DNA from: Escherichia coli | Lineage (GTDB): Bacteria > Pseudomonadota > Gammaproteobacteria > Enterobacterales > Enterobacteriaceae | NCBI RefSeq assembly: GCF_036507355.1 | Contig: NZ_AP027877.1 | Direction: 5' to 3' (one strand) | DNA length: 64,000 bases | Part shown: piece after piece, positions 3,141 through 43,330 of the stretch | Layout: every line of letters starts with the position of its first letter | Numbering within the stretch: position 1 is the stretch's first letter | Translations under genes and position numbers: made by a program | Notes under the pieces: generated by a model | What the model was told of the DNA's origin: nothing | Databases searched by the model: none | What the model saw: the letters and a program-made list of their open reading frames with translations, nothing else

Positions 3141-3183
3141 TCTGACTAGCAGATTCATTTTCTCATGGCACCCCTTTTATACT

Positions 3184-3357: not shown

Positions 3358-3601
3358 ATAACCTCCATGGTTTATCGAATCTTATGTTCGATTTGAACGT
3401 TATACGCTGGTTTATTTTGATACCGTTGATGAGATCAAAGATCGGGTGAATTGATTAAAAATAAGCCAGATGGACGTATGGGCAAGGATTATGGTTTTAT
3501 TTGTCATACAAATAAATATAATAGGCGCTTCCGATGTAGACCCGTATTCTTCGCCTGTACCACGGGTCGGTTTTAGTACAGGCGTTTTCTTTAAATATCC
3601 T

Positions 3602-4132: not shown

Positions 4133-4320
4133 AACATTTCCTGCTTTAACATAATTTTCCGTTAACATAACGGGCTTTTCTCAAAATTTCATTAAATATT
4201 GTTCGCCCGTTTTCAGTACGTTACGTTTCACTGTAAGAATGGAGATTGCCCATCCCACAATCCTGGTCTAAGCCTGGAAAGGATCAATTTTCATCCGAAC
4301 GTTCCTGACAGGAGAAAACC

Positions 4321-5322
4321 ATGAGTAAAGTTGGTATTAACGGTTTTGGTCGTATCGGTCGACTGGTGTTGCGTCGTTTACTTGAAGTCAAAAGCAACAT
4401 AGACGTTGTCGCTATTAATGATCTTACTTCCCCAAAAATTCTCGCCTATCTGCTGAAACATGATTCAAACTATGGTCCGTTCCCCTGGAGCGTTGATTTT
4501 ACGGAAGATTCACTTATCGTTGATGGGAAAAGTATCGCGATTTACGCCGAAAAAGAGGCTAAAAATATTCCGTGGAAAGCGAAAGGGGCAGAAATCATTG
4601 TCGAATGTACTGGCTTTTATACCTCCGCCGATAAATCGCAGGCGCATCTTGATGCTGGTGCGAAGAAGGTGTTGATTTCCGCTCCTGCCGGTGAAATGAA
4701 AACCATCGTTTATAACGTTAATGACGACACTCTGGATGGCAACGACACCATTGTTTCCGTGGCGTCATGCACCACTAACTGCCTTGCGCCGATGGCCAAA
4801 GCCTTGCATGACAGTTTCGGGATAGAAGTCGGCACGATGACGACCATTCATGCCTATACTGGCACCCAGTCACTGGTGAATGGCCCGCGTGGTAAAGATT
4901 TACGTGCTTCACGCGCAGCGGCAGAAAATATCATTCCCCACACTACGGGGGCGGCAAAAGCCATTGGTCTGGTGATCCCGGAACTGAGCGGCAAACTGAA
5001 AGGTCATGCGCAACGCGTGCCGGTGAAAACAGGTTCGGTCACTGAGCTGGTGTCCATTCTCGGAAAAAAAGTGACTGCCGAAGAGGTGAATAACGCACTT
5101 AAACAAGCAACCACCAATAACGAGTCATTTGGTTATACCGATGAAGAAATAGTCTCTTCCGATATCATTGGCAGCCATTTCGGTTCAGTGTTTGATGCCA
5201 CGCAAACGGAAATTACCGCCGTGGGCGATTTACAACTGGTGAAAACGGTCGCCTGGTACGATAACGAATATGGCTTCGTCACGCAGCTTATTCGCACCCT
5301 CGAAAAATTCGCTAAACTCTGA
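4321..5322 (+). CDS. gapC: Glyceraldehyde-3-phosphate dehydrogenase, apparently intact
   Basis: 333-aa uninterrupted ORF with NAD-binding [10 protein letters not shown] and catalytic [10 protein letters not shown] motifs. Confidence 0.85.
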
Positions 5323-5330
5323 CGCGCACA

Positions 5331-5360
5331 GGCGGAGGGAAAAAACCTCCGCCTCTTTCA
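5331..5360. terminator. Bidirectional stem-loop between convergent gapC and aldA
   Basis: ggcggaggg-aaaaaa-cctccgcc followed by a T-rich stretch, lying between the two stop codons. Confidence 0.55.
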
Positions 5361-5364
5361 CTCA

Positions 5365-6804
5365 TTAAGACTGTAAATAAACCACCTGGGTCTGCAGATA
5401 TTCATGCAGGCCATGTTTACCATCTGCGCCGCCAATACCGGATTTACGCCATCCGGCGTGGAAGCCTTGCATAGCTTCGAAGTTTTCACGATTGATGTAA
5501 GTTTCACCAAACTTCAGCCCTTTAATGGCTTTCATCGCGACGTTCAGATTTTGGGTATAGATTGATGAGGTCAGGCCGTAATCACTGTCATTAGCCATTG
5601 AGATAGCATCTTCCAGCGTGTCAAATGCGACTACCGGCAGAACCGGGCCAAAGGTTTCCTCATGCATAATCGACATTTCCTGGCGAACATCCAGCAGCAA
5701 TGTCGGCGGATAATAATATCCTTTCCCCTCTACCGCTTTGCCACCCAACGCCACTCTCGCCCCTTCTTCTACTGCGCGCGCCACTTTTTGCTCGACCCTT
5801 TCCAGCGCCGCGGCGTTAATCAACGGCCCCATCGCAATGTCGTTGCGTTCAGCGGGGTTACCAAATTGAACCGCCTGCATCGCTTCACCCAGCCGATTGA
5901 CGAACTGATCATAAATGCCTTTCTGTACATAAACACGTTCTGCACAGTTACACACTTGCCCACTATTAATGACGCGTGAATCAACGATGGCTTTGACTGC
6001 CAGTTCAAGATCGGCATCGTCCATTACGATAGCTGGTGCTTTACCCCCCAGTTCCAGGCACACTTTGGTGATGTTTTTCGCCGCAGTCGCCATGATCTTC
6101 TCACCTGCAGAGACGCTGCCTGTCATACTGACCATTGCGACCTTTGGGTTACCCGCCAGTTCTTGCCCAACGGTTTCACCACACCCCAGAACAAGGTTAA
6201 ACACGCCGCGCGGAAGGCCTATTTCATCGACGATTTTGGCGAATGCAATCGCATTGTTTGGCGTAAATTCACTGGGTTTAATGACAATGGTATTACCAGT
6301 CAAAAGAGCGGGAGCCATTTTGCGGGCAATGAGGAAGAACGGGAAGTTCCACGGCAGAATGCCGGTAGTCACACCAAGCGCACGTTTAAACAGAAGAATA
6401 TTTTCTCCTGGACGATCGCTTTGAATAATCTCGCCCTCGTAACGCCGTGCCCACTCCGCCATGTAATCGATATAGTCGGCAGTAAAAGCCACTTCGACTT
6501 CAGCCAGCTGCTGGATCTTGCCCCCTTCTTCAACAATCAGCGCACTGATTTCACTGGCGCGTTCGCGGATCCCGGCGGAGATTTTGCGCAACCAACTGGC
6601 GCGTTCAATAGCAGGCAACGCTTCCCATTCTGGTTGTGCACGTTCTGCTGCATCGATTGCCTTACGGGCATCCTCGGCCTGACCATCGGGTATGCGGGAA
6701 ATGACAGCCTCTGTAGCAGGGTTTACCACATCAATCCATGCGTCTCCACGCCAGGTAACAAACTGTCCATCGATATACATAGGATGTTGAACGGGTACTG
6801 ACAT
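5365..6804 (-). CDS. aldA: NAD-dependent aldehyde dehydrogenase (lactaldehyde dehydrogenase type)
   Basis: 479-aa ORF with ALDH family features (catalytic Cys region …GQVCNCAERVYVQ…); synteny. Confidence 0.9.
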   Translation of the reverse strand: MSVPVQHPMYIDGQFVTWRGDAWIDVVNPATEAVISRIPDGQAEDARKAIDAAERAQPEWEALPAIERASWLRKISAGIRERASEISALIVEEGGKIQQLAEVEVAFTADYIDYMAEWARRYEGEIIQSDRPGENILLFKRALGVTTGILPWNFPFFLIARKMAPALLTGNTIVIKPSEFTPNNAIAFAKIVDEIGLPRGVFNLVLGCGETVGQELAGNPKVAMVSMTGSVSAGEKIMATAAKNITKVCLELGGKAPAIVMDDADLELAVKAIVDSRVINSGQVCNCAERVYVQKGIYDQFVNRLGEAMQAVQFGNPAERNDIAMGPLINAAALERVEQKVARAVEEGARVALGGKAVEGKGYYYPPTLLLDVRQEMSIMHEETFGPVLPVVAFDTLEDAISMANDSDYGLTSSIYTQNLNVAMKAIKGLKFGETYINRENFEAMQGFHAGWRKSGIGGADGKHGLHEYLQTQVVYLQS

Positions 6805-7000
6805 GGGCGACTCCTGTGATTTATATGTTTGTTTTCGGTGAATACATTGTTAATTAACATCAATCATCATAGAGACGGCATCGTGAAAGGACAATTCTGT
6901 GAAGGGCTTCATAAAAACAAGTGTAAAAGGAATAAAAGGCAGAAATAAAAGTCAGGAGTCATGCCCGTTTGCAAACAAGTGGTTCACAAACGGGCAATTT

Positions 7001-7801
7001 TTAACGTAACGAGCGACTTTCCATCGCCTCGATGAGCACCGCATCGTGTTTAAGCGTTTGCCATGCCTGAATGACTTCTGCCGGAAAATCAACGTGAACG
7101 ATAAAATCTCGCCCGCGGGGACCGTAGCCATCGCTATCATCGCGTAAACGCGGCAGCTCGCCAGTGAGTAGTGAGAGATAACGCTCAACCGGCCATAATC
7201 CTTGTAACTGATTAATAAAGATTACACTGTCTGCGTTATTTCCTAACTGAGGAACGAATCCGGGATAACTCAACCAGCGGGGTGCATCGGGATTGTCCCC
7301 GGTCATACGGCGGAACGTTGCCATCGTGCGCCGCTGCATGGTGGGGTCCTGTACAACGATAGCCGTATGAACTCGTTCTACGGCCTGATTCAATAGCGCG
7401 ATGCTAAAGCGTGCGTTTTCACCGCAGTTTGTTGACTGGTCTTCAACCCAGATTTTTTCATGCGGAATATGCCAGAACTGATGAGCGATATCCGCCAGGA
7501 TGGTCGCTTCTGCTCTGCCAGTGGTGCGGATAGTGTTGTAGTGCGGATGCTGTGCGATGGCGCTATACAAAAAAGTTGTCGAGTGACCGATACCACCACT
7601 AATCAGTAAAGGAATTTGCTGATCGCGAGCAATCTTACATGCCGCATCGATAGTCGGCATAACCGCATTTCCTGCAAGTATGACGCAATCAGCCTGATAC
7701 GGCACCTCACCGGAGAAATCATCCTGCGCCAGCCACTGTCCGATAACATTTATGGCATCTATAGTTGCCGTCGAAAGCGTCGGAAACGGGGTAATGTTCA
7801 T
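7001..7801 (-). CDS. ydcF: DUF218-family protein
   Basis: 266-aa ORF between aldA and hrpA; symbol from synteny. Confidence 0.7.
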
Positions 7802-8069
7802 GGTTCCTCCTTATCGTTCCCTTCAGAATACTGCGTGAGATAATAGTGAGAAGCGGAGCACTCTGAAAGGAGGAAGTCGTATGTCCTTAACCGCCACTCC
7901 GCAAGCCTGACATATCTTTTAAGGAAATGCTGTAGATAAACATTATTCATCTTGCAGCAGAGAATTGTATTTTTCAGAATTCCTGAATTTTTGCCCTTAC
8001 CGTTTTAGAATTAAAAAACCCGGCGCTAAATGCTTACCGGGTTTTAGATTTATCAGGCAAATAGCAGGG

Positions 8070-11000
8070 TTAACCGCTAATCTGCTCCATCGCCTGCAAA
8101 ATACGCTTATCTGAAATAGGATAAGGCGTACCAAGTTGTTGAGCGAAGTAACTAACGCGCAGCTCTTCTATCATCCAACGGATCTCTTTCACGTCTTCAT
8201 CCTCACGACGTGCAGGCGGCAGTTTGTTGATCCATTGCTGCCACGCCTGCTGGACGTTTTCGACTTTCAGCATCTGAGCACGGTCGCGATGCGGATCAAC
8301 CGCCAGTTTTTCCAGCCGTTTTTCAATCGCCTGCAAATAACGCAGCGTGTCGCCCAGCCGTTTGAAGCCGTTACCAGTCACAAAACCGCGATACACCAGC
8401 CCGCCCATCTGCGCTTTAATGTCAGAAAGCCCCAGCGCCATCGTCATATCCACCCGCCCTTTCAGGCGTTTGTTGATATTGAACACCGCAGTGAGGATTT
8501 GCTCGACCTGCTTCGCAATATCCACCACCGTGTCATTCAGTTCGGCGCGCACTTTTTCATGCAGCGCAGCAAAGCCTTCTTCCGTCCAGACCGGGCCACC
8601 ATTGGCGTCGATCAGTTGATCCACGCCGCAGGAGATACAATCGTCGATCAGATCCAACACTTTGCCATACGGGTTAAAGTACAGCCCTAACTTGGCTTTA
8701 TTTGGCAACTTCTCATGCAAATATTTGATTGGCGAAGGAATATTCAGCAACAGTAAACGGCGAAGGCCGTTCCACATTGCCTGTTTTTGCTCCAGCGGAT
8801 TATCAAACAGTTTGATCGCCACACTGTCGCGTTCATCAACCAGCGCAGGCCACGCCTTCACTTTGTAGTTGCCACGCTTCTGCTCGTAGCTTTCCGGCAG
8901 TTGTCCAAAGCTCCAGATATGCAGTCCGCTCTGCTCGATACCGTCATCCGCCACCGCAGACAACGTTTCCTGTACTTTGCCTTTTAGCGCCTCTTTCAGT
9001 GCCTGCAAAGAACGTCCTTCCTGAAGCTTCTTGTTTTTGTCATCCACCACGCGGAAGGTGATTTTCAGGTGATCGGGCACTTGATCCCAGTGCCAGTCTT
9101 CGCGGTCAACGGTAACGCCGGTCATCCGCCGTAACTCGCGCTCAAGGCTGTCGAGCAACGGTAACTCCAATGGTGTTGCGCGGCCTAAAAACGCTTCGGC
9201 GTAGTTTGGCGCAGGTACAAAATTACGGCGTACCGGTTTCGGCAGCGATTTAATCAGAGCAATCACCAGTTCGCGGCGCAGACCGGGGATCTGCCACTCA
9301 AACCCGCTCTCCTCAACCTGGTTAAGCAGCGGCAGCGGAATATGTACGGTCACGCCGTCAGCATCTGCCCCCGGCTCAAACTGATAGCTCAAACGCAGCT
9401 TGAGATTGCCCTGATGCCAGAAGTTCGGGTAATCCAGTTTGCTGATTTTTTCTGCGCCCTCTTTGATCAACATGCTTTTTTCAAAGTTGAGCAAATCAGG
9501 GGTTTCGCGGCTGACTTTTTTCCACCAGCTGTCGAAGTGACGAGCGGAGATTACATCGTGGCTGATGCGCTGGTCGTAGAACTCAAACAGCGTTTCGTCA
9601 TCCACCAGAATATCGCGGCGACGTGATTTGTGTTCCAGCTCTTCCACTTCCGCCCGCAGTTTCAGGTTTTCACGGAAGAATGCGTGACGCGTCTGCCAGT
9701 CACCTTCCACCAGCGCGTGGCGAATAAAGAGTTCACGACATAACGCCGGATCGATCTGGCTGTAGTTGACCTTGCGCGCAGCAACAATCGGCAAACCATA
9801 AACAGTGACTTTTTCCGTTGCCATCACCGCGCCCTGCGCCCGTTCCCAGTGCGGTTCGCTGTAGGTGCGTTTAATCAAATGCTGAGCGACAGGCTCCACC
9901 CATTCCGGGTCGATACGCGCAGCAATGCGGCCCCACAGGCGGCTGGTTTCTACCAGTTCCGCCACCATTACCCATTTCGGCGGTTTTTTGAATAAACCAG
10001 AACCGGGGAAGATGGAGAAACGCGCGTTACGTGCGCCGGTATATTCTTGTTTATCGGCATCTTTCATGCCGATATGCGAAAGCAAACCGGTCAGTAAGGC
10101 GATGTGAATTTCGCGATACTCCGCCGGTTCGCTGTTAACCGGAATGCCAAGCTCTTTCACCACCTGGCGCAACTGAGTGTAGATATCCTGCCATTCGCGC
10201 ACGCGCAGATAGTTGAGATAATCGGTACGACACAGGCGACGGAAGGCGTTAGAAGAAAGCGCCTTTTGCTGCTCGCCAAGATAATTCCACAGATTTACAA
10301 ACGCGAGGAAGTCGGATTCTTTGTCGTGGAAGCGACGATGTTTTTCGTCCGATGCCTGCTGTTTGTCCATCGGACGTTCGCGCGGATCCTGAATGGAGAG
10401 CGCGGACGTGATAATCATCGCCTCACGCACGCAGCCATGTTTTTGCGCTTCCAGCACCATACGCGCCAGACGTGGGTCGACAGGCAACTGCGAGAGCTGG
10501 CGACCGAGCGGCGTCAGTTTATAGGCGCTGGCCTGTTCATCAGTGGTGATCGCGCCCAGCTCTTCGAGCAGACGCACGCCATCCTGGATATTGCGTTTAT
10601 CCGGTGCTTCGACAAACGGGAACGCAGCGATATCGCCCAGCCCCAGCGCGGTCATCTGCAAAATAACCGAGGCCAGGTTGGTACGCAGAATCTCCGGATC
10701 GGTAAACTCCGGGCGCGAGAGGAAATCGTCTTCGGAATAGAGACGAATACAGATCCCTTCGGACACACGACCACAGCGGCCTTTACGCTGATTGGCAGAC
10801 GCCTGGGAAATCGGCTCAATCGGCAAACGCTGCACTTTGGTGCGATAGCTGTAGCGGCTGATACGTGCTGTACCGGGGTCGATAACGTATTTAATCCCCG
10901 GTACGGTCAGCGAGGTTTCCGCGACGTTGGTCGCCAGCACAATACGCCGTCCACTGTGCGACTGGAACACGCGGTTCTGTTCGCTGTTCGAAAGCCGCGC

Positions 11001-11972
11001 ATAAAGCGGCAAGATTTCGGTATGACGCAGATTTAGCTTGTTCAGCGCATCGGCGGTATCGCGAATTTCCCGCTCGCCGCTCATAAAGATCAGAATGTCG
11101 CCGGGGCTTTCCTGGCTCAGTTCGTCTACGGCGTCAAAAATCGCCTGCAATTGATCGCGCTCGGTGTCATCGGCTTCTTCAACAATCGGGCGATAGCGCA
11201 CTTCCACCGGATAGGTCCGACCGGAGACTTCAATAATCGGCGCATTATTAAAGTGGCGCGAAAAGCGTTCCGGGTCGATAGTCGCGGAAGTGATAATGAT
11301 TTTTAGGTCAGGACGCCGCGGCAGCAACTCTTTCAAATAGCCGAGCAAAAAATCGATATTCAGGCTGCGTTCGTGCGCTTCGTCAATAATGATAGTGTCG
11401 TACTGCATCAGCAGGCGGTCTTGCTGGATCTCCGCCAGCAGGATACCGTCGGTCATCAGCTTGACCATCGTGTTATCACTTACGTGATCGCTGAAACGCA
11501 CTTTGTAACCGATGCAACCGCCCGGCTCCGTTTTCAGCTCTTCCGCAATACGGTTCGCCACTGTTCTTGCCGCCAGACGACGCGGCTGGGTATGGCCGAT
11601 CAGCCCTTTAATCCCGCGCCCCAGCTCCATACAGATTTTCGGTAGCTGAGTCGTTTTACCGGAACCGGTTTCCCCGGCGACGATCACCACCTGGTGATCA
11701 CGAATCGCTTCGAGAATGTCCTGCTTTTTCTGACTAACCGGTAAATTGTCAGGGTAAGTAATTTCCGGTCGTGCCGCTTCACGCAGCAGGACTTTCCCTG
11801 CCGCCTGGTCAATCTCTTTCGCCATCTCCTGGAAAATGGCCTGTTGTGCATCAGGATTTTTAACCTTCTTCACACCATGCAGACGGCGAGAAAAACGCAG
11901 TCTGTCACGCAGCATCAGCGAATCCAGCCGCTGCTGCAAAGCAGTAAAGGTCAATTTTTGTTGTTCTGTCAT
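8070..11972 (-). CDS. hrpA: ATP-dependent DEAH-box RNA helicase
   Basis: 1300-aa ORF with Walker A (GETGSGKTTQ), DEAH box (IIIDEAHERS) and helicase C motifs. Confidence 0.9.
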   Translation of the reverse strand: MTEQQKLTFTALQQRLDSLMLRDRLRFSRRLHGVKKVKNPDAQQAIFQEMAKEIDQAAGKVLLREAARPEITYPDNLPVSQKKQDILEAIRDHQVVIVAGETGSGKTTQLPKICMELGRGIKGLIGHTQPRRLAARTVANRIAEELKTEPGGCIGYKVRFSDHVSDNTMVKLMTDGILLAEIQQDRLLMQYDTIIIDEAHERSLNIDFLLGYLKELLPRRPDLKIIITSATIDPERFSRHFNNAPIIEVSGRTYPVEVRYRPIVEEADDTERDQLQAIFDAVDELSQESPGDILIFMSGEREIRDTADALNKLNLRHTEILPLYARLSNSEQNRVFQSHSGRRIVLATNVAETSLTVPGIKYVIDPGTARISRYSYRTKVQRLPIEPISQASANQRKGRCGRVSEGICIRLYSEDDFLSRPEFTDPEILRTNLASVILQMTALGLGDIAAFPFVEAPDKRNIQDGVRLLEELGAITTDEQASAYKLTPLGRQLSQLPVDPRLARMVLEAQKHGCVREAMIITSALSIQDPRERPMDKQQASDEKHRRFHDKESDFLAFVNLWNYLGEQQKALSSNAFRRLCRTDYLNYLRVREWQDIYTQLRQVVKELGIPVNSEPAEYREIHIALLTGLLSHIGMKDADKQEYTGARNARFSIFPGSGLFKKPPKWVMVAELVETSRLWGRIAARIDPEWVEPVAQHLIKRTYSEPHWERAQGAVMATEKVTVYGLPIVAARKVNYSQIDPALCRELFIRHALVEGDWQTRHAFFRENLKLRAEVEELEHKSRRRDILVDDETLFEFYDQRISHDVISARHFDSWWKKVSRETPDLLNFEKSMLIKEGAEKISKLDYPNFWHQGNLKLRLSYQFEPGADADGVTVHIPLPLLNQVEESGFEWQIPGLRRELVIALIKSLPKPVRRNFVPAPNYAEAFLGRATPLELPLLDSLERELRRMTGVTVDREDWHWDQVPDHLKITFRVVDDKNKKLQEGRSLQALKEALKGKVQETLSAVADDGIEQSGLHIWSFGQLPESYEQKRGNYKVKAWPALVDERDSVAIKLFDNPLEQKQAMWNGLRRLLLLNIPSPIKYLHEKLPNKAKLGLYFNPYGKVLDLIDDCISCGVDQLIDANGGPVWTEEGFAALHEKVRAELNDTVVDIAKQVEQILTAVFNINKRLKGRVDMTMALGLSDIKAQMGGLVYRGFVTGNGFKRLGDTLRYLQAIEKRLEKLAVDPHRDRAQMLKVENVQQAWQQWINKLPPARREDEDVKEIRWMIEELRVSYFAQQLGTPYPISDKRILQAMEQISG

Positions 11973-12163
11973 AACGTTAGAGGGCAGTAGTCTGCCTGAT
12001 TAATTTTCTTTTAAATGATAGATATAGAGTACCACATCGCGGCTTTCTATGCGTTGTTCAATAAATTCGAACATAGGCTTCGATTTATTGCGCTATCTCT
12101 GTGGCAGGATTGTGAATAAAGTGTCAACAAGCAACGGGGCATCGCCCATTCAAACATCTATAA

Positions 12164-12778
<615 letters not shown>

Positions 12779-12831
12779 CCGGACACGGTCTTGATGTGGA
12801 CTGTAGATATTCAGTCCACATCTCAATCCAC

Positions 12832-15895
<3,064 letters not shown>

Positions 15896-15910
15896 TTTCT
15901 CTATTTTCCT

Positions 15911-16807
15911 TCAGTAACAGCAGTAGCGAATAAAATAAAAAAATACCGGATCGGTGAAAATTAATGAGTCAATCCTGTCAAGGAGTCCGCCATGTCCTGG
16001 TAATAGTTTTCCGCTATCTTTAACACCAATATCTCGTTTGATGGCTGACATCACTACATCGCCGCAAAAACCACTAATACCAATTAACAAACCCGCTAAT
16101 AATGCCTGTAATGTATTTAGCGGTGTCAGCAACGGTCCAATAATCAGTGACGCAATCATGGTGGTGATGACGCCCCCCACCAGACCTTCCAGCGTTTTTC
16201 CCGGGCTGACTTTGGGGACCACTTTTCTTCTGCCGCAGGATTTCCCCCATAAATACTGTGCAATATCGTTTGACTCTGTTAACGCCAAAAGAAATAACAC
16301 CAGTAACGCCCCGCCCTGGGTATTTATGGTTGGCAACATTAATAGCCAGGCGGTATGACTCAAGGCGAAAACGGTCATTATCCAGCCCCAAAAAATGGCG
16401 CTCACGATATGCAGAAAACCGGAGGGATCACCCACAAAAACTCGCCAGGTGGCTAATATCAGAAACCCAGTCAAAGGTATAAATAACAGAAACAGCTCAA
16501 AGCAATTAAAACCGATAAGCAAATAGTTAAGAGGAATAACCCAATATAACCAACGCGGAAAATGTACGGATATAAGCGTACAATATTCTTTCAATGCCAG
16601 AAAACTTATCAGCGCAAAAAACGTCAACGTCATCCAGCGTGGACCTGAAATCACCAGTGAAAAACAAATGACGATACCCCACCAGGTACGAATACGTAAT
16701 GTAACTTCATCCCCTTTTCTCTCCGGTAACCGCCATACCCGAAAACGGTTTATCAGCGTTGCTAAAATTAACAACGCGAAAAGTGTTGCCAGAGATTTTT
16801 CCAGCAT
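15911..16807 (-). CDS. ynbB: CDP-diglyceride synthetase (CdsA)-like integral membrane protein
   Basis: 298-aa multi-TM ORF; its start overlaps the ynbA stop at 16807. Confidence 0.7.
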   Translation of the reverse strand: MLEKSLATLFALLILATLINRFRVWRLPERKGDEVTLRIRTWWGIVICFSLVISGPRWMTLTFFALISFLALKEYCTLISVHFPRWLYWVIPLNYLLIGFNCFELFLLFIPLTGFLILATWRVFVGDPSGFLHIVSAIFWGWIMTVFALSHTAWLLMLPTINTQGGALLVLFLLALTESNDIAQYLWGKSCGRRKVVPKVSPGKTLEGLVGGVITTMIASLIIGPLLTPLNTLQALLAGLLIGISGFCGDVVMSAIKRDIGVKDSGKLLPGHGGLLDRIDSLIFTDPVFFYFIRYCCY

Positions 16808-17418
16808 TATCTTTCAGCACTCATCAGGAGCACACTCCGACAACGATTAATCGCAGTCCAGATAAGCAGAATTGAAGCAATGCCCCATAAAAGATTATTC
16901 CATTGCATCCACTGTGGATAAATGGCAACGGCCAGCCCCCACAACCCAAATATTAACGCACGATCGCTTTTGCCGAATGGACCGGCATAACTGCGAATAC
17001 CGTTAATCGTCTGCGCGAGTAAACCGCAAAACTCAGTCAATATGGTGCAAAATAACATGAGTATTACGAGTGATGCGTTACTTTCCGGTAAAAATAAAAA
17101 CGGTAAATAGAGCGCAATATCGGAAATAACATCGCCAGTTTCATTCAAAATCGCCCCCAGACGTGTTTGCTGATTGCACTCACGCGCCAACATGCCATCC
17201 AGCGCATTGAGTGCCATACGGATAAAAAGCACGATGGGCAATAGCAAAAAGAGGATGGGTTGTGCGACCAACATCAACAGCAATCCGTTAATAAGAGAAA
17301 GCGCCAGTGCAGCAAGAGTGATGTGATTCGCTGTAACATGGTGCTTATAAAGCCAAAACATCGTCGGCCTTAACAGCGACTGAAAGAGCGGTTTTATCTG
17401 GTAGAGCGTCATTATCAA
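16807..17418 (-). CDS. ynbA: CDP-alcohol phosphatidyltransferase family protein
   Basis: 203-aa membrane ORF with the CDP-alcohol transferase motif (…DGMLAR…G…GDVISD…). Confidence 0.75.
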   Translation of the reverse strand: MIMTLYQIKPLFQSLLRPTMFWLYKHHVTANHITLAALALSLINGLLLMLVAQPILFLLLPIVLFIRMALNALDGMLARECNQQTRLGAILNETGDVISDIALYLPFLFLPESNASLVILMLFCTILTEFCGLLAQTINGIRSYAGPFGKSDRALIFGLWGLAVAIYPQWMQWNNLLWGIASILLIWTAINRCRSVLLMSAER

Positions 17419-17581
17419 TCCTTGATAATTCGGTTTGCGCTATGGTGCATCAATTCCCCTGACGGAGATATCGCAACACGACGCTTCATTAAAAATTCAG
17501 AATATATCAAGGTATTGGGGACTCACTGTCAGGAATGATTATCCCAATAAATCAAGTGGTTAAAAATTATTACGCTGTTAT

Positions 17582-18478
17582 TCAATACAACTCATCAAGT
17601 TTTCTCATCGCTTGTTCCCGTATTGCGCGCGTCTTACCGTTAAGCGCCAGCTGGCGAACTAAATCCAGTTCAGGGTTAACAAGCTCTAACGCCAGCAAAG
17701 GATCACGTTTCAGCCTCGCCTTTAATACATCAACTGGAAAACGGGGATTATTCATCGCCACAATCCACCACTCGGGATCAATTTCTGCCGCCAGTACTGC
17801 AGGCGGTGTGTGGCGGTTGTTAAGTGCGCCGAACTTGAAAAATGTGAGATTGCTTTTCGCCAGTGTACTCCACCATATACGATCCGGTTGTTTTGCCAGT
17901 ACATCCAGTTGTGCTAACGCATCGGGGTCTAGTGCATAATAAACACGTAACGCTTCGTTAACCTGCGCACGGGAACTGTTTTCCTGCCTCAGAAAAAACT
18001 TCGCCCAAATATCATTGCGTGGCGTGTTTTGCTGTAATTCCTTGAGAACAACAGCGGGTAAATTATCCCAACTAATTAATGCACTCTCTAAAAAGTCCCA
18101 GTCGTCCGAACGTATCAGAGAGGTGGCATTTAATAGCATCTGGTCATCAACTTCACCGTAGCTGATAAGCTCAGACAAAATCATATCAGCGCTGGTTTCA
18201 TATGCATCTGAATCTGCTTTGGGATTATTTTTCCGATGCGATAAAGCACGTTGCCAAATTTTTTGTTTCATCGACGTGCTCAGATACTGATTTTTCGCCA
18301 GATTACTCCACCCCTCAGGATCGTTGAAACGTGTCAATAACCGTTGTAAAGCAGCGTCAGAGTGAATTATCTGCATATCCCGACAGCAAAAGTAGGCAGG
18401 GGATTTTTTCTCCATCCTTTTAACAAAATTAAACTGTAAGTTATCTGGCAACGCTAAAAATAACGCATCTATTAGATC
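17582..18478 (-). pseudogene. ydbD: 3' fragment of ydbD-like gene, truncated at its 5' side by IS1
   Basis: 289-aa C-terminal-type ORF (17582..18451) runs up to the IS1 end at 18479 with no credible upstream start; symbol from synteny next to ynbA, moderate certainty. Confidence 0.5.
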
Positions 18479-19246
18479 GGTAATGACTCCAACTTATTGA
18501 TAGTGTTTTATGTTCAGATAATGCCCGATGACTTTGTCATGCAGCTCCACCGATTTTGAGAACGACAGCGACTTCCGTCCCAGCCGTGCCAGGTGCTGCC
18601 TCAGATTCAGGTTATGCCGCTCAATTCGCTGCGTATATCGCTTGCTGATTACGTGCAGCTTTCCCTTCAGGCGGGATTCATACAGCGGCCAGCCATCCGT
18701 CATCCATATCACCACGTCAAAGGGTGACAGCAGGCTCATAAGATGCCCCAGCGTCGCCATCGTGCGTTCACCGAATACGTGCGCAACAACCGTCTTCCGG
18801 AGCCTGTCATACGCGTAAAACAGCCAGCGCTGGCGCGATTTAGCCCCGACATAGCCCCACTGTTCGTCCATTTCCGCGCAGACGATGACGTCACTGCCCG
18901 GCTGTATGCGCGAGGTTACCGACTGCGGCCTGAGTTTTTTAAGTGACGTAAAATCGTGTTGAGGCCAACGCCCATAATGCGGGCTGTTGCCCGGCATCCA
19001 ACGCCATTCATGGCCATATCAATGATTTTCTGGTGCGTACCGGGTTGAGAAGCGGTGTAAGTGAACTGCAGTTGCCATGTTTTACGGCAGTGAGAGCAGA
19101 GATAGCGCTGATGTCCGGCGGTGCTTTTGCCGTTACGCACCACCCCGTCAGTAGCTGAACAGGAGGGACAGCTGATAGAAACAGAAGCCACTGGAGCACC
19201 TCAAAAACACCATCATACACTAAATCAGTAAGTTGGCAGCATCACC
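18479..19246 (-). mobile_element. insAB: IS1 (768 bp), copy 1, minus orientation; insA 18916..19191, insB' 18494..18997
   Basis: Both terminal inverted repeats recognised (GGTGATGCTGCCAACTTACTGAT… and …AAGTTGGAGTCATTACC); InsA/InsB ORFs; flanking 9-mers differ (attagatcg vs cacgtcggt), so no target-site duplication. Confidence 0.9.
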
Positions 19247-21479
19247 CACGTCGGTATCAGCCGTTTTGTTTGTGTTGCTAAATGCAATCGAACGGCTACT
19301 GTCAAGGTTGTGAACGTCATAACGCAATGCGTTATTCCAGTTCATGCCGTTGTCGAAGGACATCTGATGTTTCAGGCCAAAGAACTGGCTATAACCACCT
19401 GTGACGCCATTATCACCCGCTTTCTGCGCACCATCACCATCGAGACGAGCGATACCGTATTCCAGGCTCATGCTCTGGCTTTCGCTCAGGTCAACGGTTT
19501 TACGCAGTGCCAGCATGTCATACTCGGTGTTATTTCCGAGTTCCTCACGCGGGTCACCTTTCGCCACCACGTTAAAGGCCAGGCCATTGCCCACCTTCGG
19601 CGCGGCATCCGCCAGCATGCTGAAGCGGTTGCTTAACATACGCGCTTCACGGAATACCGTGGTCGCCTGGCTACCGCTCACCTGCTTCAGGGCGCTATTC
19701 AGTTCAGCAGTGGTGCCCACGTTCAGGCTGGTATACAGCTCGTTATTGGTGTAACCCGCATCCAGTGCCTTCGCCACATCGTTCACCGAAGCATCGGTCG
19801 CCACATCGGTGTAGGCGTTTTTGCTCATGATGACGTCAACGTTGCCGCTGGCATCGGTGCTGCCTTTGGCGGTCCATACCACGGACGTTGAGGTGATGGC
19901 ATCGGCGTCGGTCAGGTTGATGCCTTCCACCACGTTGTCGAAACTGACCGTGGTGTCTGCCGTACCGGCGGCGAAACCGGTGTTGATCCCGACACCATTC
20001 ATGCTGGCGTTGTTGACCTTCAGTTTACCGGCGCTGCCGTCAACGTTGGTACCGACGATATAGCCGTTGAGGTTGTTACTGCTGCCATCGCTACTACCGC
20101 TATCAGTCGTTTCACTGAAAGGTGAAGTGGTGTAAGTGTTTGGCATGTCCGGCAACGTGTAGTCGGTGTAATGCACTTCGGTATTGTTACCGCTGTTGCC
20201 GTTCACCCCTTCCACATTCACGCTGTCGCCCTGCTTAATCAACCCCGAACCAGTCACGCCGTCGGCAATCACCACCGTACCGTTGTTAACGATATGACCT
20301 TCTGTGCCCAGTACGCTGAACGCAAACGAGTCGTTAGCAAAAATATTGATCGTGCCGTTGTTCTCAATTACCGCATCGGCGGTGGCATTGGCATCCAGTT
20401 GCATACCAGTCAATCCGGTATCGGTGGTGCCTTCGGTACCGAGATTGATAACACCGTTGTTAACCAGCTGTGCGTTTTTATCGCCTTCCATCGCCACGGC
20501 GTTGTTGCCGCTGATGTTCATTACACCATCGTTGAGAGCAACATAGTTGTTGTGGGTGAATTTAACCGCGCTGGCGTTGTCTTTATCGAAGTTAATTACC
20601 CCGCCATCCTGGTTCCACAAGAAGGCATCGCTTTCTGTCGCACCGGCAGTACTTACCGCCACGGTGACTTTCGCATCCACCACGCCCTTGTTAATAAACT
20701 GGCTGGCGCCATCGTCATAGTGAATAGCGCCCGCACCTAATGCGGCATCCAGCGTCATTTCACCGGTGTTATATAACGTGGCGTTAGCATTGCTGCCCTG
20801 GAAGCGAATGGCGTTTTTGCTGTTATCAAGGATGAGTTTGCCGCTGTTGTTGAACGTTGACTTATCGTCAATATCCAGCGTCCCGGCATTGTTGTTTTCA
20901 TCCTGATAACCCATTTTCCAGGTACCCGCGTTATTCACTACCGCAGAGTTATAGAGAATCGCGCCTTTACGCGCCTCGCCGCCTGCAAGGTTATTGAATA
21001 CCGCATCGCCCTGAGCGTTAACGCGCGCCGACGCAATACCGCTGTTATTCACCGTACCATCGTGAAGTTGTAAAGTTGACAGGGAACCGGTGTTATTAAT
21101 TACCGCGTTGCTGTTTTTCTCAATTTTTACGACGTCATTAAGCGTTCCGTTGTTATTGAAGGTCCCTCCTTCCAAAGTCACCGTGTTCAATACACCTTCA
21201 TTGGTTAACGCACCGCCTGCATTCACGACGATGGCTGAGCTAATGGTTCCGCTCGACTCGTTAACCAGCGCACCATTTTCGAGTATCCTGATCGTTCCAT
21301 TTTTAACAGCACCCGCACTGGTGACATCCCCGTTGATAATCGCACCAGACGATAATAATACGGTCTCACCCGCAGAACTTAATACATCGCCATCATCATA
21401 CAAATCGGCGATATAATTATCCGTCGGATTATATTCATCGGCCCCCTGGCAAACCCCAAAGGTACAAATGGTGCCATAG
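19247..21479 (-). pseudogene. ydbA: Internal fragment of autotransporter adhesin passenger domain (ydbA-like)
   Basis: Asn/Gly/Thr-rich beta-helix-type repeats (…NNGTLN…VNNSG…). The apparent start (TTG) and last 8 codons (GDAANLLI*) are encoded by IS1 ends, so this is not an intact gene. Confidence 0.7.
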
Positions 21480-22247
21480 GGTGATGCTGCCAACTTACTG
21501 ATTTAGTGTATGATGGTGTTTTTGAGGTGCTCCAGTGGCTTCTGTTTCTATCAGCTGTCCCTCCTGTTCAGCTACTGACGGGGTGGTGCGTAACGGCAAA
21601 AGCACCGCCGGACATCAGCGCTATCTCTGCTCTCACTGCCGTAAAACATGGCAACTGCAGTTCACTTACACCGCTTCTCAACCCGGTACGCACCAGAAAA
21701 TCATTGATATGGCCATGAATGGCGTTGGATGCCGGGCAACAGCCCGCATTATGGGCGTTGGCCTCAACACGATTTTACGTCACTTAAAAAACTCAGGCCG
21801 CAGTCGGTAACCTCGCGCATACAGCCGGGCAGTGACGTCATCGTCTGCGCGGAAATGGACGAACAGTGGGGCTATGTCGGGGCTAAATCGCGCCAGCGCT
21901 GGCTGTTTTACGCGTATGACAGGCTCCGGAAGACGGTTGTTGCGCACGTATTCGGTGAACGCACGATGGCGACGCTGGGGCGTCTTATGAGCCTGCTGTC
22001 ACCCTTTGACGTGGTGATATGGATGACGGATGGCTGGCCGCTGTATGAATCCCGCCTGAAGGGAAAGCTGCACGTAATCAGCAAGCGATATACGCAGCGA
22101 ATTGAGCGGCATAACCTGAATCTGAGGCAGCACCTGGCACGGCTGGGACGGAAGTCGCTGTCGTTCTCAAAATCGGTGGAGCTGCATGACAAAGTCATCG
22201 GGCATTATCTGAACATAAAACACTATCAATAAGTTGGAGTCATTACC
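21480..22247 (+). mobile_element. insAB: IS1 (768 bp), copy 2, plus orientation; insA 21535..21810, insB' 21729..22232
   Basis: Terminal IRs at both ends; flanking 9-mers differ (gtgccatag vs ctggactta); inverted relative to copy 1. Confidence 0.9.
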
Positions 22248-22357
22248 CTGGACTTACGTGTTTTTTCGGTTGAGTCGGGTATTGAAGTATCCGCAGCCCA
22301 TGTCTGGCTACTTAACGCCATGGCAACACAAACAGACAATAATTTTTTCCTTTGCAT
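22248..22357 (-). pseudogene. ydbA: 5' end of autotransporter gene (signal peptide) cut by IS1
   Basis: Minus-strand ATG at 22355-22357 gives MQRKKLLSVCVAMALSSQTWAADTSIPDSTEKT… (signal peptide) and runs into IS1 copy 2 after about 36 codons. Confidence 0.55.
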
Positions 22358-22764
22358 ATAAAATTCCTTAGATCTAGACCGTGCGTAACAAGCCATGCAG
22401 AATTTGAAGATAAATCGTAGTAAATATTCATAGTGAAATAAGCAATAAAGAAATGCTTATATAATTCACAAAATCAATATTAAAATCAGGCAAGTAAAAG
22501 CATACAAAAAAACAGTTGATGGAATTATATTCCACAAAAAACTCACTTCAATCTAAAAATTAACGACAAAAAACAAAAACACACTAATAATTCATTGACG
22601 CTGCATATATATTTTGTGATTACATATATATTGGTAATGATTTGTTATTTAAGGGAAGGATATATAAGGTTTTTGTAGAAATATCCACGGTAATTAAGCA
22701 TGCTAACGTCAGTTTAAATACTGTAAAAGATCATTAATAGATACATTTTGTAGCCAACTATAAT

Positions 22765-23091
22765 TTATTTGCGCAACCATTTACCATTAATTCCCTGAAC
22801 ATATTGCCCCGACTTCGCGCGAGCAACAAGCTTTTGTCCAGCCAGTTTGGCTATCTCTTTAGTGGATACATTATTTTGCTTTGCCAGTTGTTGGTAACTA
22901 TGGTTACGAGCTTCATTAATATCTTTTACTAATGCCTGTGTTTCGGCATCCGTTTGTAGCGCCACCAGGTAACCGTTAAGCGTTTCACCTACCCGCCCCT
23001 GACTTCTGGCTTCGTTCAGGGTTAAAGCCATTGCACTGTCGCTCATCAGGCCAATGGCCCATACAGCTATGAGTAATGTTCTTTTCATCAT
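22765..23091 (-). CDS. ydbL: DUF1318-family periplasmic protein
   Basis: Start chosen at the internal Met giving a 108-aa signal-peptide protein (MKRTLLIAVWAIGLMSDSAMA…); last gene of ydbH-ynbE-ydbL. Confidence 0.7.
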   Translation of the reverse strand: MMKRTLLIAVWAIGLMSDSAMALTLNEARSQGRVGETLNGYLVALQTDAETQALVKDINEARNHSYQQLAKQNNVSTKEIAKLAGQKLVARAKSGQYVQGINGKWLRK

Positions 23092-23095
23092 CACC

Positions 23096-23281
23096 TCAAA
23101 ATAGATCGCTACGGGTTTTGAGCAGGTCTTCAACGTCCTTATCCGCTTTAATGATGATTTCATGCTCAATTTTAACGTTCATATTAATGGTGATTGGCTC
23201 TTTCGGCGCAGCCACTTCAATGCGAGGCGTGCAACCAACCAACATAAAAGAGGACGCAAACGCGGCTATCACTATTTTCAT
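23096..23281 (-). CDS. ynbE: Small lipoprotein
   Basis: 61-aa ORF with lipobox (…FMLVGC…); overlaps the ydbH stop by 4 nt. Confidence 0.75.
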   Translation of the reverse strand: MKIVIAAFASSFMLVGCTPRIEVAAPKEPITINMNVKIEHEIIIKADKDVEDLLKTRSDLF

Positions 23282-25917
23282 TGTTTTTCCTCACACTCTT
23301 TTCCTGATGGGCAGCCAGTTTCCGGTAGCTGGGCATTCTGCTCCAGCCATACCTGGAGATTATCGCCAAAGCGTAAACTGCGCCATAACGTAAAAATATT
23401 CTCTTCATGGTGATAATTAAGGTTTACCGTACCGCTTTTACCATCGACGCGACTGGTGCCCGAAATGTTGGCCTGCATGGTTAACACACCGAGATTATCT
23501 AAATTAATCCTTGTTGATGAGCGACTGATTTCCATATAACGCAACCAGTTGATGGCAGTTCCAGCGGTCATATTGTCTTTGGCCACCGCATCTGCAGTGT
23601 CTTTATCCAGACGCAGCGTCATCGGCCCCGCGTTTGCCAACCAGCCATCTTTGACAATCCATTTTTCATTGTTCAGCCATAGTGGCAAGGCCCCACTGAA
23701 TGCCCCAGACATGGCGAATTGTTTCGGATTGACGGCGCTAACCAGTTCGCTGGATGAGAGATTATTCAGCCGCAACAGCGCCGGGTCATGTTGCGGCATA
23801 CGTAATTGTTTCATCAGCACGTTACCGCCTAACACATCGACGCTAACATCAGTCAACAGCAATGGTTCTTCTTCAGTCCACGGATAACGCCCTTGCAAAT
23901 CAGCCGTAATATTTTTCGCTGTCACCAGATTAATCACTTCGGCAATTCGCAACGTAACGGGGCCGCGAGTCCCAAGATGCCAGGCTCCATCGGCAAAACG
24001 GAAAGGCAGGACAAAATCGACACCGTTAACCTGATTATCTGGCATCCAGGCACTACCGCCTTTCAACACGCCGTGCCCTCCCGCGCGGAATCCTTGTTCA
24101 GGCGCAGCAGAAAATGCAACCTGAGCATACAGTTCACCATCGCGTAAGTTCATCTTCCAGTCGGGTGGCACCAGCGGCTGGAATACAGTCAGTGATTGTT
24201 TAGGCCACCAGGCGTTACCGCGCAGACGAATACCGTCCCAGCGACCATTTACCCGAACCGGGCCAATCTCACCAGCATGTAAATCGCCTTTAAAGAGGAA
24301 ATACGTCGGATCGCGCCCATCGACGCTAAATTTTAAGGTTGATGGCGGTAACACACTGCCGCCAGTGAACAGCGTTTGCCCGGCGTCCAGTGACAGCGCG
24401 CCGCTGAAGGAGGGATGCTGTGCGTCACGTACCCAGACGACGGGCTTGTCGAGAATTAATCGCGGCTTTTCTACCGTCATCGTACCGTATTGTAGCTGGT
24501 CGAAACCGGTGGAGAGATCGGTCAGCGTAATCGTGCTGTCATGCCACTCACCTTTTCCTGCGACATCCCAGGTGGCATTCATCGGTGTAAAACTCCCTTT
24601 TCCCCAGTAGCGCCACTGCCAGCGGCCAGCGTCAGGGAGAAAATCATTCGCCAGCCCATCCATATGCAGCACGAAATCGCCCAGTTCATTTTCATGCGCC
24701 TGCAAAATGGCCTGCAAACGTCCGTCAACACCACGTTGGGTGACTTTTACACCCGCTAAAGGCCAGCGGATTTCATCGATGTCCAGCGAATCGATGACTC
24801 TTCCCTTTGAACGAAGTAACGCGCCTGGCTCAAAGGTCAGCGTTGGGTCAGACAGACTTCCACTTACCTGCGCAGGTAAACGGGCATATAAAATGAGGTC
24901 CGCCTGTTTCGCTTCACCGGTCAGCTGCAGAGGCAGCTGGCTGTTATCCATGCTTAATTTTCCTGGGCCAAAATTAAGCACCGCGTTGCCCTTACCCGCT
25001 TGCCCCTGGGTCAGCACACTCAGTCGTCCGCTGACCAGAGCGTTCTCAAGCCCTGCCTGCCAGTTGTCGACTTTGACACCCAGTCGGCCACTCAAAGGAA
25101 AACCTGCATACGGCCAGCTCCAGCGACCATCGCTTACGGTCAATTGTTGACGCGTAATTTGCCACGGCAAATCGAGCAACGGATCGCCGTTATCCCGTGC
25201 CAGCACGATCAATTGCCCGCTATTTTCCTGCCAGTCCAGCTCTGCATCCACCAGTGACGGTTCCTGCGGCAAGTTTAACGTCGCAGTAGCATGCCCACTT
25301 ACAGGAAGTCCATCCGGCACGAGCGGCATAGTAAATTCCCCCACCAGTTTAACCGGCGGCTGATTTTCAAACGCGACGACATCCAGCTCGCTGACTGTAA
25401 GTTGTTGCCCTTTCAGCTGGCCTTGAAATTTAACTTTTTCGCCCTGATAACGCAGTTGCTGGATATCAGAGGTTAATGCGAGAGAGAGTTTTCCCTGCCA
25501 TTCCTGCCAGGGAGAAAAAATCAGTTTATCGATATTGATCCAGGTGTTAGGCAGCATGGACTGCCACTGCGCGAGGGTTTTTGGAGCAGCTGGCGATTGC
25601 TCCGTCTGCGGCAATTTCGCCAGACAAGCAGAATCAAGTTCTACCGTGCCGACGTTCAATAACCAGCGGCTGGGATGTGAAAGGCTGGCGTTGGTGATAT
25701 GCGCAAGCTGACAATCTCCCACCAGATAACGGAGATCGGGAATGATTAAACCTTTACGCGTAATGCGTGGGCTTTCATCTAATGCAATACGTGTCCCGAG
25801 CGGTAGCCAGATGCCCGCCAGCGTGGGAACCCACAGCCCGAGCGTCATCAGCAGCGTCAACGGCACAAGAATAATCAGTAATAACAGCGCGAGAACGGCT
25901 TTATATTTACCCAGCAT
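23278..25917 (-). CDS. ydbH: AsmA-like large envelope protein
   Basis: 879-aa ORF with N-terminal TM anchor; operon with ynbE and ydbL. Confidence 0.8.
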   Translation of the reverse strand: MLGKYKAVLALLLLIILVPLTLLMTLGLWVPTLAGIWLPLGTRIALDESPRITRKGLIIPDLRYLVGDCQLAHITNASLSHPSRWLLNVGTVELDSACLAKLPQTEQSPAAPKTLAQWQSMLPNTWINIDKLIFSPWQEWQGKLSLALTSDIQQLRYQGEKVKFQGQLKGQQLTVSELDVVAFENQPPVKLVGEFTMPLVPDGLPVSGHATATLNLPQEPSLVDAELDWQENSGQLIVLARDNGDPLLDLPWQITRQQLTVSDGRWSWPYAGFPLSGRLGVKVDNWQAGLENALVSGRLSVLTQGQAGKGNAVLNFGPGKLSMDNSQLPLQLTGEAKQADLILYARLPAQVSGSLSDPTLTFEPGALLRSKGRVIDSLDIDEIRWPLAGVKVTQRGVDGRLQAILQAHENELGDFVLHMDGLANDFLPDAGRWQWRYWGKGSFTPMNATWDVAGKGEWHDSTITLTDLSTGFDQLQYGTMTVEKPRLILDKPVVWVRDAQHPSFSGALSLDAGQTLFTGGSVLPPSTLKFSVDGRDPTYFLFKGDLHAGEIGPVRVNGRWDGIRLRGNAWWPKQSLTVFQPLVPPDWKMNLRDGELYAQVAFSAAPEQGFRAGGHGVLKGGSAWMPDNQVNGVDFVLPFRFADGAWHLGTRGPVTLRIAEVINLVTAKNITADLQGRYPWTEEEPLLLTDVSVDVLGGNVLMKQLRMPQHDPALLRLNNLSSSELVSAVNPKQFAMSGAFSGALPLWLNNEKWIVKDGWLANAGPMTLRLDKDTADAVAKDNMTAGTAINWLRYMEISRSSTRINLDNLGVLTMQANISGTSRVDGKSGTVNLNYHHEENIFTLWRSLRFGDNLQVWLEQNAQLPETGCPSGKECEEKQ

Positions 25918-42346: not shown

Positions 42347-43330
42347 ATGAGAAAAATTATGAGATATGACAATGTTGGTGATGCTGCCAACTTACTGATT
42401 TAGTGTATGATGGTGTTTTTGAGGTGCTCCAGTGGCTTCTGTTTCTATCAGCTGTCCCTCCTGTTCAGCTACTGACGGGGTGGTGCGTAACGGCAAAAGC
42501 ACCGCCGGACATCAGCGCTATCTCTGCTCTCACTGCCGTAAAACATGGCAACTGCAGTTCACTTACACCGCTTCTCAACCCGGTACGCACCAGAAAATCA
42601 TTGATATGGCCATGAATGGCGTTGGATGCCGGGCAACAGCCCGCATTATGGGCATTGGCCTCAACACGATTTTACGTCACTTAAAAAACTCAGGCCGCAG
42701 TCGGTAACCTCGCGCATACAGCCGGGCAGTGACGTCATCGTCTGCGCGGAAATGGACGAACAGTGGGGCTATGTCGGGGCTAAATCGCGCCAGCGCTGGC
42801 TGTTTTACGCGTATGACAGGCTCCGGAAGACGGTTGTTGCGCACGTATTCGGTGAACGCACGATGGCGACGCTGGGGCGTCTTATGAGCCTGCTGTCACC
42901 CTTTGACGTGGTGATATGGATGACGGATGGCTGGCCGCTGTATGAATCCCGCCTGAAGGGAAAGCTGCACGTAATCAGCAAGCGATATACGCAGCGAATT
43001 GAGCGGCATAACCTGAATCTGAGGCAGCACCTGGCACGGCTGGGACGGAAGTCGCTGTCGTTCTCAAAATCGGTGGAGCTGCATGACAAAGTCATCGGGC
43101 ATTATCTGAACATAAAACACTATCAATAAGTTGGAGTCATTACCGACAATGTTAAACCATGTCCATTTTGTGGTTGTCCATCAGTAACGGTGAAAGCCAT
43201 TTCAGGATATTACCGAGCGAAGTGTAACGGATGCGAATCCCGAACCGGTTATGGTGGAAGTGAAAAAGAAGCACTCGAAAGATGGAATAAACGAACCACT
43301 GGAAATAATAATGGAGGTGTTCATGTATAA
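42347..43330 (+). pseudogene. ralR: lar/ralR (restriction alleviation; type I TA toxin) interrupted by IS1
   Basis: 5' codons (MRKIMRYDNV) at 42347..42376 and the remainder (…KPCPFCGCPSVTVKAISGYYRAKCNGCESRTGYGGSEKEALERWNKRTTGNNNGGVHV*) at 43145..43330, separated by IS1 with a duplicated GACAATGTT. Confidence 0.7.
42377..43144 (+). mobile_element. insAB: IS1 (768 bp), copy 3, simple insertion; insA 42432..42707, insB' 42626..43129
   Basis: Terminal IRs present; perfect 9-bp target-site duplication GACAATGTT at 42368..42376 and 43145..43153. Confidence 0.9.

Follow-up and report, generated by a model that had tools for sequence, protein, structure and literature searches.

This locus raised the question of how two oppositely oriented copies of the insertion sequence IS1 came to enclose an internal piece of an autotransporter gene in an Escherichia coli chromosome. 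The window, that is, the whole stretch of 64,000 nucleotides that was analysed (contig NZ_AP027877.1), was E. coli-like, with 99-100% identity to E. coli assemblies. A preliminary description of the same DNA, made from the sequence alone, had reported the inverted IS1 pair and had named IS1-mediated deletions as its likely cause. The features are given below, where reference (ref) coordinates refer to the reverse complement of locus record L025 of the near-identical relative GCA_016660925.1.

17582..18478, minus strand: ydbD 3' remnant, the last 298 codons and stop of 768, with the first 470 codons deleted; 100% identical to ref 10001-10897
18479..19246, minus strand: left IS1, 768 bp; IRR adjoins ydbD and IRL adjoins the ydbA fragment; replaces ref 10898-13918
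19220..21493, minus strand: chimeric 757-aa open reading frame; its TTG start and first 4 2/3 codons are the IRL of the right IS1, and its last 8 codons and stop are the IRL of the left IS1
19247..21479, minus strand: internal fragment of ydbA (BigA-family autotransporter), 2,233 bp; 100% identical to ref 13919-16151, same strand
21480..22247, plus strand: right IS1, 768 bp; IRL adjoins the ydbA fragment and IRR adjoins the ydbA 5' remnant; replaces ref 16152-19193
21535-21810 and 21729-22232, plus strand: insA and insB, respectively, of the right IS1
22248..22357, minus strand: ydbA 5' remnant, 110 nt, codons 1-36 and 2 nt; matches ref 19194-19303
42377..43144, plus strand: third IS1; simple insertion, target perfectly duplicated over 9 bp (gacaatgtt)

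IS1 copies and their flanking sequences

All three copies (3/3) had the length and ends of the IS1 family, being 768 bp long with canonical termini (GGTGATGCTGCCAACTTACTGAT ... AAGTTGGAGTCATTACC) and imperfect terminal inverted repeats of approximately 23 bp (GGTGATGCTGCCAACTTACTGAT / GGTAATGACTCCAACTTATTGAT). InsA was intact, with the Pfam domains Zn_ribbon_InsA and HTH_Tnp_IS1, as was InsB, with DDE_Tnp_IS1, and the A6C motif of the -1 frameshift typical of the family (TTAAAAAAC) was present in the insA/insB overlap. The right copy matched at 100% identity the copies that many E. coli records annotate as "IS1A family". It differed from the left copy at 1 of 768 positions and from the third copy by 1 nt, and each of the three carried its own private single-base difference. 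The inverted-repeat arms of the pair (18479-19247 and 21479-22247) measured 769 nt each, made up of the 768 bp of IS1 and one flanking base that is complementary by chance. The inverted pair was therefore present as first described.

The left IS1 was flanked by tattagatc and cacgtcggt, and the right IS1 by gtgccatag and ctggactta; neither pair was a direct duplication, and all four 9-mers differed from one another. The third copy served as an internal control for an undisturbed IS1 insertion in the same genome, and the 9-bp target duplication of a simple insertion was found there and at neither copy of the ydbA locus, in agreement with the earlier observation on the pair. The absence of the duplication at these two copies points to a later rearrangement, while the elements themselves remain IS1. 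The reverse-complement flank pattern of an inversion was also absent at both copies, so that the flanks did not fit a simple inversion, as the preliminary description had noted.

Comparison with an intact relative

Alignment with a genome carrying an intact ydbD-pdxI-ydbA region had been named as a check in the preliminary description and was carried out with GCA_016660925.1. The locus of this relative was uninterrupted and IS-free, coding for YdbD (768 aa), PdxI (286 aa) and YdbA (1954 aa), and the two genomes differed by 4 mismatches over approximately 23.8 kb of flanking DNA (by part, 3/18,478 bp in record L019 and 0/10,897, 0/2,233 and 1/3,114 bp in record L025). The pieces of the window mapped to ref 1-10897, 13919-16151 and 19194-22307, on one strand and collinear, and were separated by two gaps, each with one IS1 in its place. 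The first gap (ref 10898-13918, exactly 3,021 bp) took the 5' 1,410 nt of ydbD, the whole of pdxI/ydbC and the last 480 nt of ydbA. The second (ref 16152-19193, exactly 3,042 bp) took ydbA nt 111-3152. As in an IS-adjacent deletion, the missing DNA ended exactly at an IS terminus with the rest collinear with the intact relative. The loss of 3,021 and 3,042 bp exactly at the IS1 boundaries supports the proposal of IS1-mediated deletions, together with the claims that the 757-aa gene is an artefact, that the signal-peptide start of ydbA survives separately and that ydbD is 5'-truncated. With a sister genome that is intact and approximately 99.98% identical, the locus is a clean and datable case of IS1-driven gene decay, and the events are recent.

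Since the three segments were collinear in native orientation, no inversion has taken place. Replicative (duplicative) inversion is described for IS26 and IS1 and likewise leaves close inverted copies of one IS, neither with a direct target duplication; here, unlike in that process, the intervening segment was uninverted and the flanks were not mutual reverse complements. Replicative inversion, or inversion between the copies, was rejected for these reasons.

A composite IS1 transposon that carried the ydbA fragment and transposed into the site was also considered. Tn1681 is such a transposon with inverted IS1 arms, and the window shares with this type two inverted intact IS1 copies around a short passenger segment, here 2.2 kb. 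Unlike in Tn1681, the passenger lay in its native chromosomal position: it was native ydbA in its native order and orientation, between its own neighbours and 100% identical to the relative, and the outer flanks (tattagatc versus ctggactta) formed no 9-bp duplication around the pair. The arrangement thus arose in situ, and arrival by transposition, which has next to no probability, was rejected on the missing outer duplication and the native passenger. In future the inverted IS1 pair could nonetheless move as a transposon.

The same structure was searched for in other genomes. When 17000-23000 was compared by megablast with 5,426 complete E. coli genomes, no record with it was returned. Of the four 200-mers that span the junctions, none matched a junction exactly, and all that they hit were nearby independent IS1 insertions in ydbD. 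An exact 30-mer over the ydbD|IS1 junction had 0 occurrences in genome_contigs and 0 in metagenome_contigs. An arrangement absent from every other assembly searched could be an assembly artefact, in which the flank-IS1 junctions would be genuine but contigs were joined through collapsed IS1 repeats and the 3-kb blocks are still in the genome, here between further IS1 copies or moved elsewhere, and near-identical repeats of 768 bp do exceed short-read length. Such an error is nevertheless unlikely. The private single-base differences of the three IS1 copies argue for individually resolved copies and not for consensus filling, order and orientation were fully collinear with the reference, and a search of the rest of the 64-kb window did not find the deleted 3,021- and 3,042-bp blocks.

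The ydbD remnant held the DUF2773 C-terminal domain (Pfam). The enclosed ydbA fragment corresponded to nt 3153-5385, codons 1052-1795 of 1954, in native orientation. It contained the later part of the passenger, the BigA_beta sandwich and the beginning of the beta-barrel domain (Pfam); a start, a signal peptide and a complete barrel were all lacking. The Pfam Autotransporter beta-domain match begins at about residue 1726 of YdbA, so the fragment runs into this domain; the preliminary description, which had given the 2.2 kb as passenger-domain sequence, was right about the passenger and has to be extended to the opening portion of the beta-barrel translocator. The ydbA 5' remnant included the signal peptide MQRKKLLSVCVAMALSSQTWA and had its native upstream region intact (the start codon at 22357 is taken from the gene call of the relative, L025). 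The 1954-aa YdbA of the relative has the signal peptide, the BigA_N and BigA_beta passenger domains and the C-terminal Autotransporter beta-barrel of a YdbA/BigA-type autotransporter in one frame. The window has codons 1-36 and 1052-1795 only, with IS1 between them and the last 159 barrel codons lost.

The 757-aa open reading frame is a read-through artefact between two IRL ends, as had been recognised from its start and its last 8 codons. An exact-protein look-up of the chimeric reading frames (757 aa, 43 aa and 56 aa) found none on record, a conjectured contig-edge form contained a stop codon, and a homologue search with the 757-aa frame returned only fragments of the BigA/YdbA family, with no identical truncated cluster. 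Judged from the sequence, ydbD, pdxI and ydbA are all inactivated in this strain.

Probable order of insertion and deletion

The arrangement probably arose when IS1 inserted twice, recently and independently, and each insertion then gave rise to an IS1-adjacent deletion. The ancestral order would have been ynbA - ydbD - pdxI/ydbC - ydbA - ydbL, all on the minus strand, and two IS1 copies would have inserted into it independently in opposite orientations. Each would then have deleted approximately 3 kb beginning exactly at one of its own ends, by intramolecular transposition into a nearby target, in which the intervening DNA and one copy of the 9-bp duplication would be lost. The expected product is ydbD-3' / IS1(-) / ydbA codons 1052-1795 / IS1(+) / ydbA codons 1-36. 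We infer both the order, insertion and then deletion, and the part played by transposase rather than RecA. Every IS-plus-deletion event followed in the LTEE was an insertion first and an adjacent deletion second (PMC11708052). Against this reading, an intermediate (IS1 at any of the four junctions, with the duplication intact and no deletion) was found in none of the collections searched.

The outer junctions had A+T contents of 70% and 62%, and the inner junctions 48% and 54%. In other lineages, simple IS1 insertions with target duplications were found 43-120 bp from the ydbD junction, which marks it as a genuine primary IS1 target site. The higher A+T and the targeting of the ydbD site in other lineages hint that IS1 may first have inserted at the AT-rich outer junctions and that the two deletions may then have extended inward from the IRL ends.

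Missing target duplications have been attributed to either of two standard causes, recombination between IS copies or adjacent deletions (PMC11708052), and RecA homologous recombination between directly repeated IS1 copies is a possible, though clearly less probable, origin. By this route IS1(-) would have stood at ref 10897 and 13919 and IS1(+) at 16151 and 19194, and each same-orientation pair would have recombined, leaving one hybrid IS1 between one half of each original duplication, with the DNA between lost. Recombination predicts what was observed, namely no target duplication, endpoints at IS ends and collinear flanks, and IS1 has hit the locus repeatedly; adjacent deletion and same-orientation IS1 recombination are expected to give the identical sequence product. 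However, six events (4 insertions and 2 recombinations) would be needed at only about 4 substitutions per 23.8 kb from an IS-free relative, and the genomes searched contained none of the four simple insertions that this route presumes.

The insertion-then-deletion reading itself requires four events in approximately 8 kb since a very recent divergence, which is many, although IS bursts do yield such numbers.

In a further reading, each IS1 would have come with its own deletion in a duplication-free transposition event, or both copies and both deletions would have come from one complex intramolecular reaction; a duplicative (replicative) intramolecular event, with a re-inversion after it, might even connect the two copies. 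Duplication-free IS movement coupled to deletion has been reported for IS5 and IS481 (PMC11708052), and the two copies are inverted, as from replicative inversion, and only 1 nt apart in sequence. A one-step origin is still quite improbable, since the enclosed segment was uninverted, the flanks had no reverse-complement duplication of replicative inversion, and any duplicative-inversion pathway takes more steps than two insertions and two deletions. The IS-plus-deletion cases of the LTEE were all resolved as two-step (PMC11708052). Were it true, the locus would be a natural example of a one-step "IS-plus-deletion" rearrangement by IS1.

Related cases and annotation

Classical IS1-promoted adjacent deletions are those of the gal region of E. 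coli K-12, and Reif and Saedler reportedly described such deletions in 1975. The IS150 "IS-del" events come from the LTEE of Lenski (PMC11708052). In both, as in the window, the IS is kept at the boundary, the deletion begins exactly where the IS ends, a target-site duplication is lacking and the surroundings are collinear. Unlike those cases, the window holds two events at oppositely oriented IS1 copies 2.2 kb apart, with an orphan internal gene fragment that resembles a composite transposon, and, as no ancestor with a simple insertion was recovered, the two-step order is inferred.

The locus represents ordinary insertion-sequence gene decay, a textbook phenomenon, with no new element, mechanism or system. 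It matters mainly for annotation, in which the 757-aa "gene" becomes a chimeric pseudogene fragment, and ydbD, pdxI (ydbC) and ydbA are to be listed as lost in this strain. In E. coli K-12 this autotransporter gene is likewise an IS-inactivated pseudogene, which suggests that ydbA is dispensable and repeatedly lost. In K-12 the interruption is by IS2 and IS30, whereas in the window it is by IS1, with large parts of ydbA, pdxI and the 5' 60% of ydbD deleted. The locus is thus one more sign that insertion sequences repeatedly target ydbA and the AT-rich part of ydbD.

IS1 copies at the ydbA locus

A repeat search and a reading of 17400-22600 revealed a single inverted repeat with arms at 18479-19247 and 21479-22247, each arm made up of the 768 bp IS1 and one flanking base complementary by chance. 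The inverted IS1 pair of the preliminary description is confirmed; the two copies differed at 1 position. Both had canonical ends and intact reading frames for insA (Pfam Zn_ribbon_InsA, HTH_Tnp_IS1) and insB (Pfam DDE_Tnp_IS1), and the A6C frameshift motif was found in their sequence. Many E. coli chromosomes and plasmids carry copies, with the annotation "IS1A family", to which the right one is 100% identical. The elements are genuine IS1.

IS1 copies and ydbA-derived features
18479-19246, minus strand, left IS1
19247-21479, internal ydbA fragment, codons 1052-1795
19220-21493, minus strand, 757-aa ORF, chimera with IS1 sequence at both ends
21480-22247, plus strand, right IS1
22248-22357, ydbA 5' remnant, codons 1-36 and 2 nt, signal peptide included
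42377-43144, plus strand, third IS1, simple insertion between recT and intR of a prophage remnant

The flanks of the left copy (tattagatc / cacgtcggt) and right copy (gtgccatag / ctggactta) had no direct 9-mer match, so both lack a target duplication as had been described, and no reverse-complement matches of the kind left by recombination or replicative inversion between copies. The third IS1, with a 1-nt difference from the right copy, carried a perfect 9-bp duplication (gacaatgtt) on both sides, so the expected duplication is seen where IS1 has inserted normally in this genome.

The 757-aa ORF is a read-through chimera, as its earlier reading as an artefact had it. It starts at a TTG within the IRL (terminal inverted repeat) of the right IS1, and its last 8 codons (GDAANLLI) and stop belong to the corresponding IRL of the left copy. 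No gene with its product was found among the records looked up.

A near-identical genome with the locus intact

An exact search with the HrpA of the window led to a near-identical relative, GCA_016660925.1, one contig of which showed 3 mismatches in 18,478 bp. The whole locus was retrieved by look-up of the YdbD of the same genome, on a contig (L025) whose reverse complement served as reference. The locus of the relative is IS-free, with ydbD (768 aa), pdxI (286 aa) and a ydbA of 1954 aa that is uninterrupted and has BigA-family domains.

Aligned segments and absent blocks
Window 7582-18478, reference 1-10897, 0 mismatches
Absent block 1, reference 10898-13918, 3,021 bp, 5' 1,410 nt of ydbD, pdxI/ydbC in full and 3' 480 nt of ydbA
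Window 19247-21479, reference 13919-16151, 0 mismatches
Absent block 2, reference 16152-19193, 3,042 bp, ydbA nt 111-3152
Window 22248-25361, reference 19194-22307, 1 mismatch

The order and strand of the three segments were unchanged, and exactly two blocks are therefore absent from the window, with one IS1 in place of each; neither block was found in the rest of the 64 kb. This alignment with an intact-locus genome, proposed as a check in the preliminary description, upheld IS1-mediated deletions as the cause and the 5' truncation of ydbD.

In ydbA, BigA_beta occupies residues 1523-1606 and the Pfam Autotransporter beta-domain match begins near residue 1726, so the internal fragment comprises the late passenger and the first part of the barrel. 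Its description as passenger-domain sequence thus holds for the late passenger and needs slight refinement where it enters the barrel; the signal-peptide start does survive separately.

The K-12 ydbA is already an IS-disrupted pseudogene. The gene is unusually divergent among lineages (91-98% identity vs about 99% for the flanks). Its 5' part, gone from the window (reference about 18647-19006), has a tandem repeat with a 30-nt unit, translated as (PVPPDDGGDT)n, whose copy number differs among strains. Several short-read contigs stop within ydbA about 185-205 codons from the start, possibly at this repeat.

Route of the deletions

The net change is two IS1-bounded deletions and zero inversion. 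Duplicative inversion followed by re-inversion is disfavoured, as it takes more steps and its expected signatures were absent. Collapse of the assembly through the IS1 repeats is argued against by a private single-base difference in each of the three IS1 copies and by perfect collinearity with the reference. Insertion of a composite transposon was excluded, the passenger being native and without an outer duplication. In its testable features the rearrangement fits an IS-adjacent deletion, and neither replicative inversion nor composite-transposon insertion.

A missing duplication is usually due to recombination between IS copies or to adjacent deletion (PMC11708052), and both routes yield the same product. 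Recombination between two same-orientation IS1 copies would give what is observed; it requires 6 events, however, while no more than about 4 substitutions per 23.8 kb separate the lineage from an IS-free relative, and it is unlikely. The adjacent-deletion route, with 4 events over that divergence, is probably the correct one. IS1 would have inserted first, and intramolecular transposition into a nearby target would then have removed the intervening DNA and one duplication copy. All IS-plus-deletion events that were traced in the Lenski LTEE began as insertions, with adjacent deletion as the second step (PMC11708052).

A+T was 70% and 62% at the outer junctions (ydbD with left IS1, right IS1 with ydbA 5' remnant) and 48% and 54% at the inner ones. 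The AT-rich outer sites, and the ydbD one being a proven primary IS1 target, weakly suggest primary insertions at the outer junctions, with both deletions running inward from the IRL ends. The rearrangement is classical IS1 behaviour, ordinary and already known; its value lies in annotation and as a tidy case of recent IS-driven gene loss.

Occurrence elsewhere and the Rac-like remnant

The arrangement was not found among 5,426 complete E. coli genomes, GTDB species representatives or JGI metagenome contigs, and the gene-position index had no match to the chimeric ORFs. Other lineages showed independent IS1 insertions at the same places. In strain 14EC033 a simple IS1 insertion (duplication gcttgtgac) lies in ydbD at 120 bp from the junction of the window, and pdxI and ydbA are intact; a metagenome contig (L017) has IS1 43 bp from that junction, and in 7 of the 5,426 complete genomes the distance to an IS1 is a few hundred bp at most. 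The AT-rich middle of ydbD (window about 18350-18480; also L017 1-181 and contig L027 12241-13008; 70% A+T at the junction) is a recurrent IS1 target across unrelated lineages. In E. coli L26 an independent IS1 (L002 13074-13841) with an 8-bp duplication lies upstream of ydbA, about 80 bp from the start codon, at a site corresponding to window 22436-22443; the ydbA of this strain is intact (1984 aa).

Another lineage, seen in Logan/ENA assemblies (L012-L016 and L018), has a 1,516-bp deletion without IS (reference 10867-12382), which joins the pdxI 3' end to the C-terminal part of ydbD that the window also keeps, at window 18447, 31 bp from the IS1 junction. Loss of the ydbD 5' part is therefore recurrent, by different routes.

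Features of the Rac-like prophage remnant
37139-38614, trkG
38864-40121, minus strand, full-length IS3, 1,258 bp
40271-41500, recE remnant
41436-42302, recT
43828-45063, intR
45115-46050, ttcA

The 3-bp flanks of the IS3 (att / ccg) differ, so it has no target duplication, and the adjoining recE remnant keeps just positions 469-877 of the 877 of the RecE profile. This junction looks like another IS-bounded deletion. IS3 is also listed for the Rac-like region in some complete E. coli genomes.
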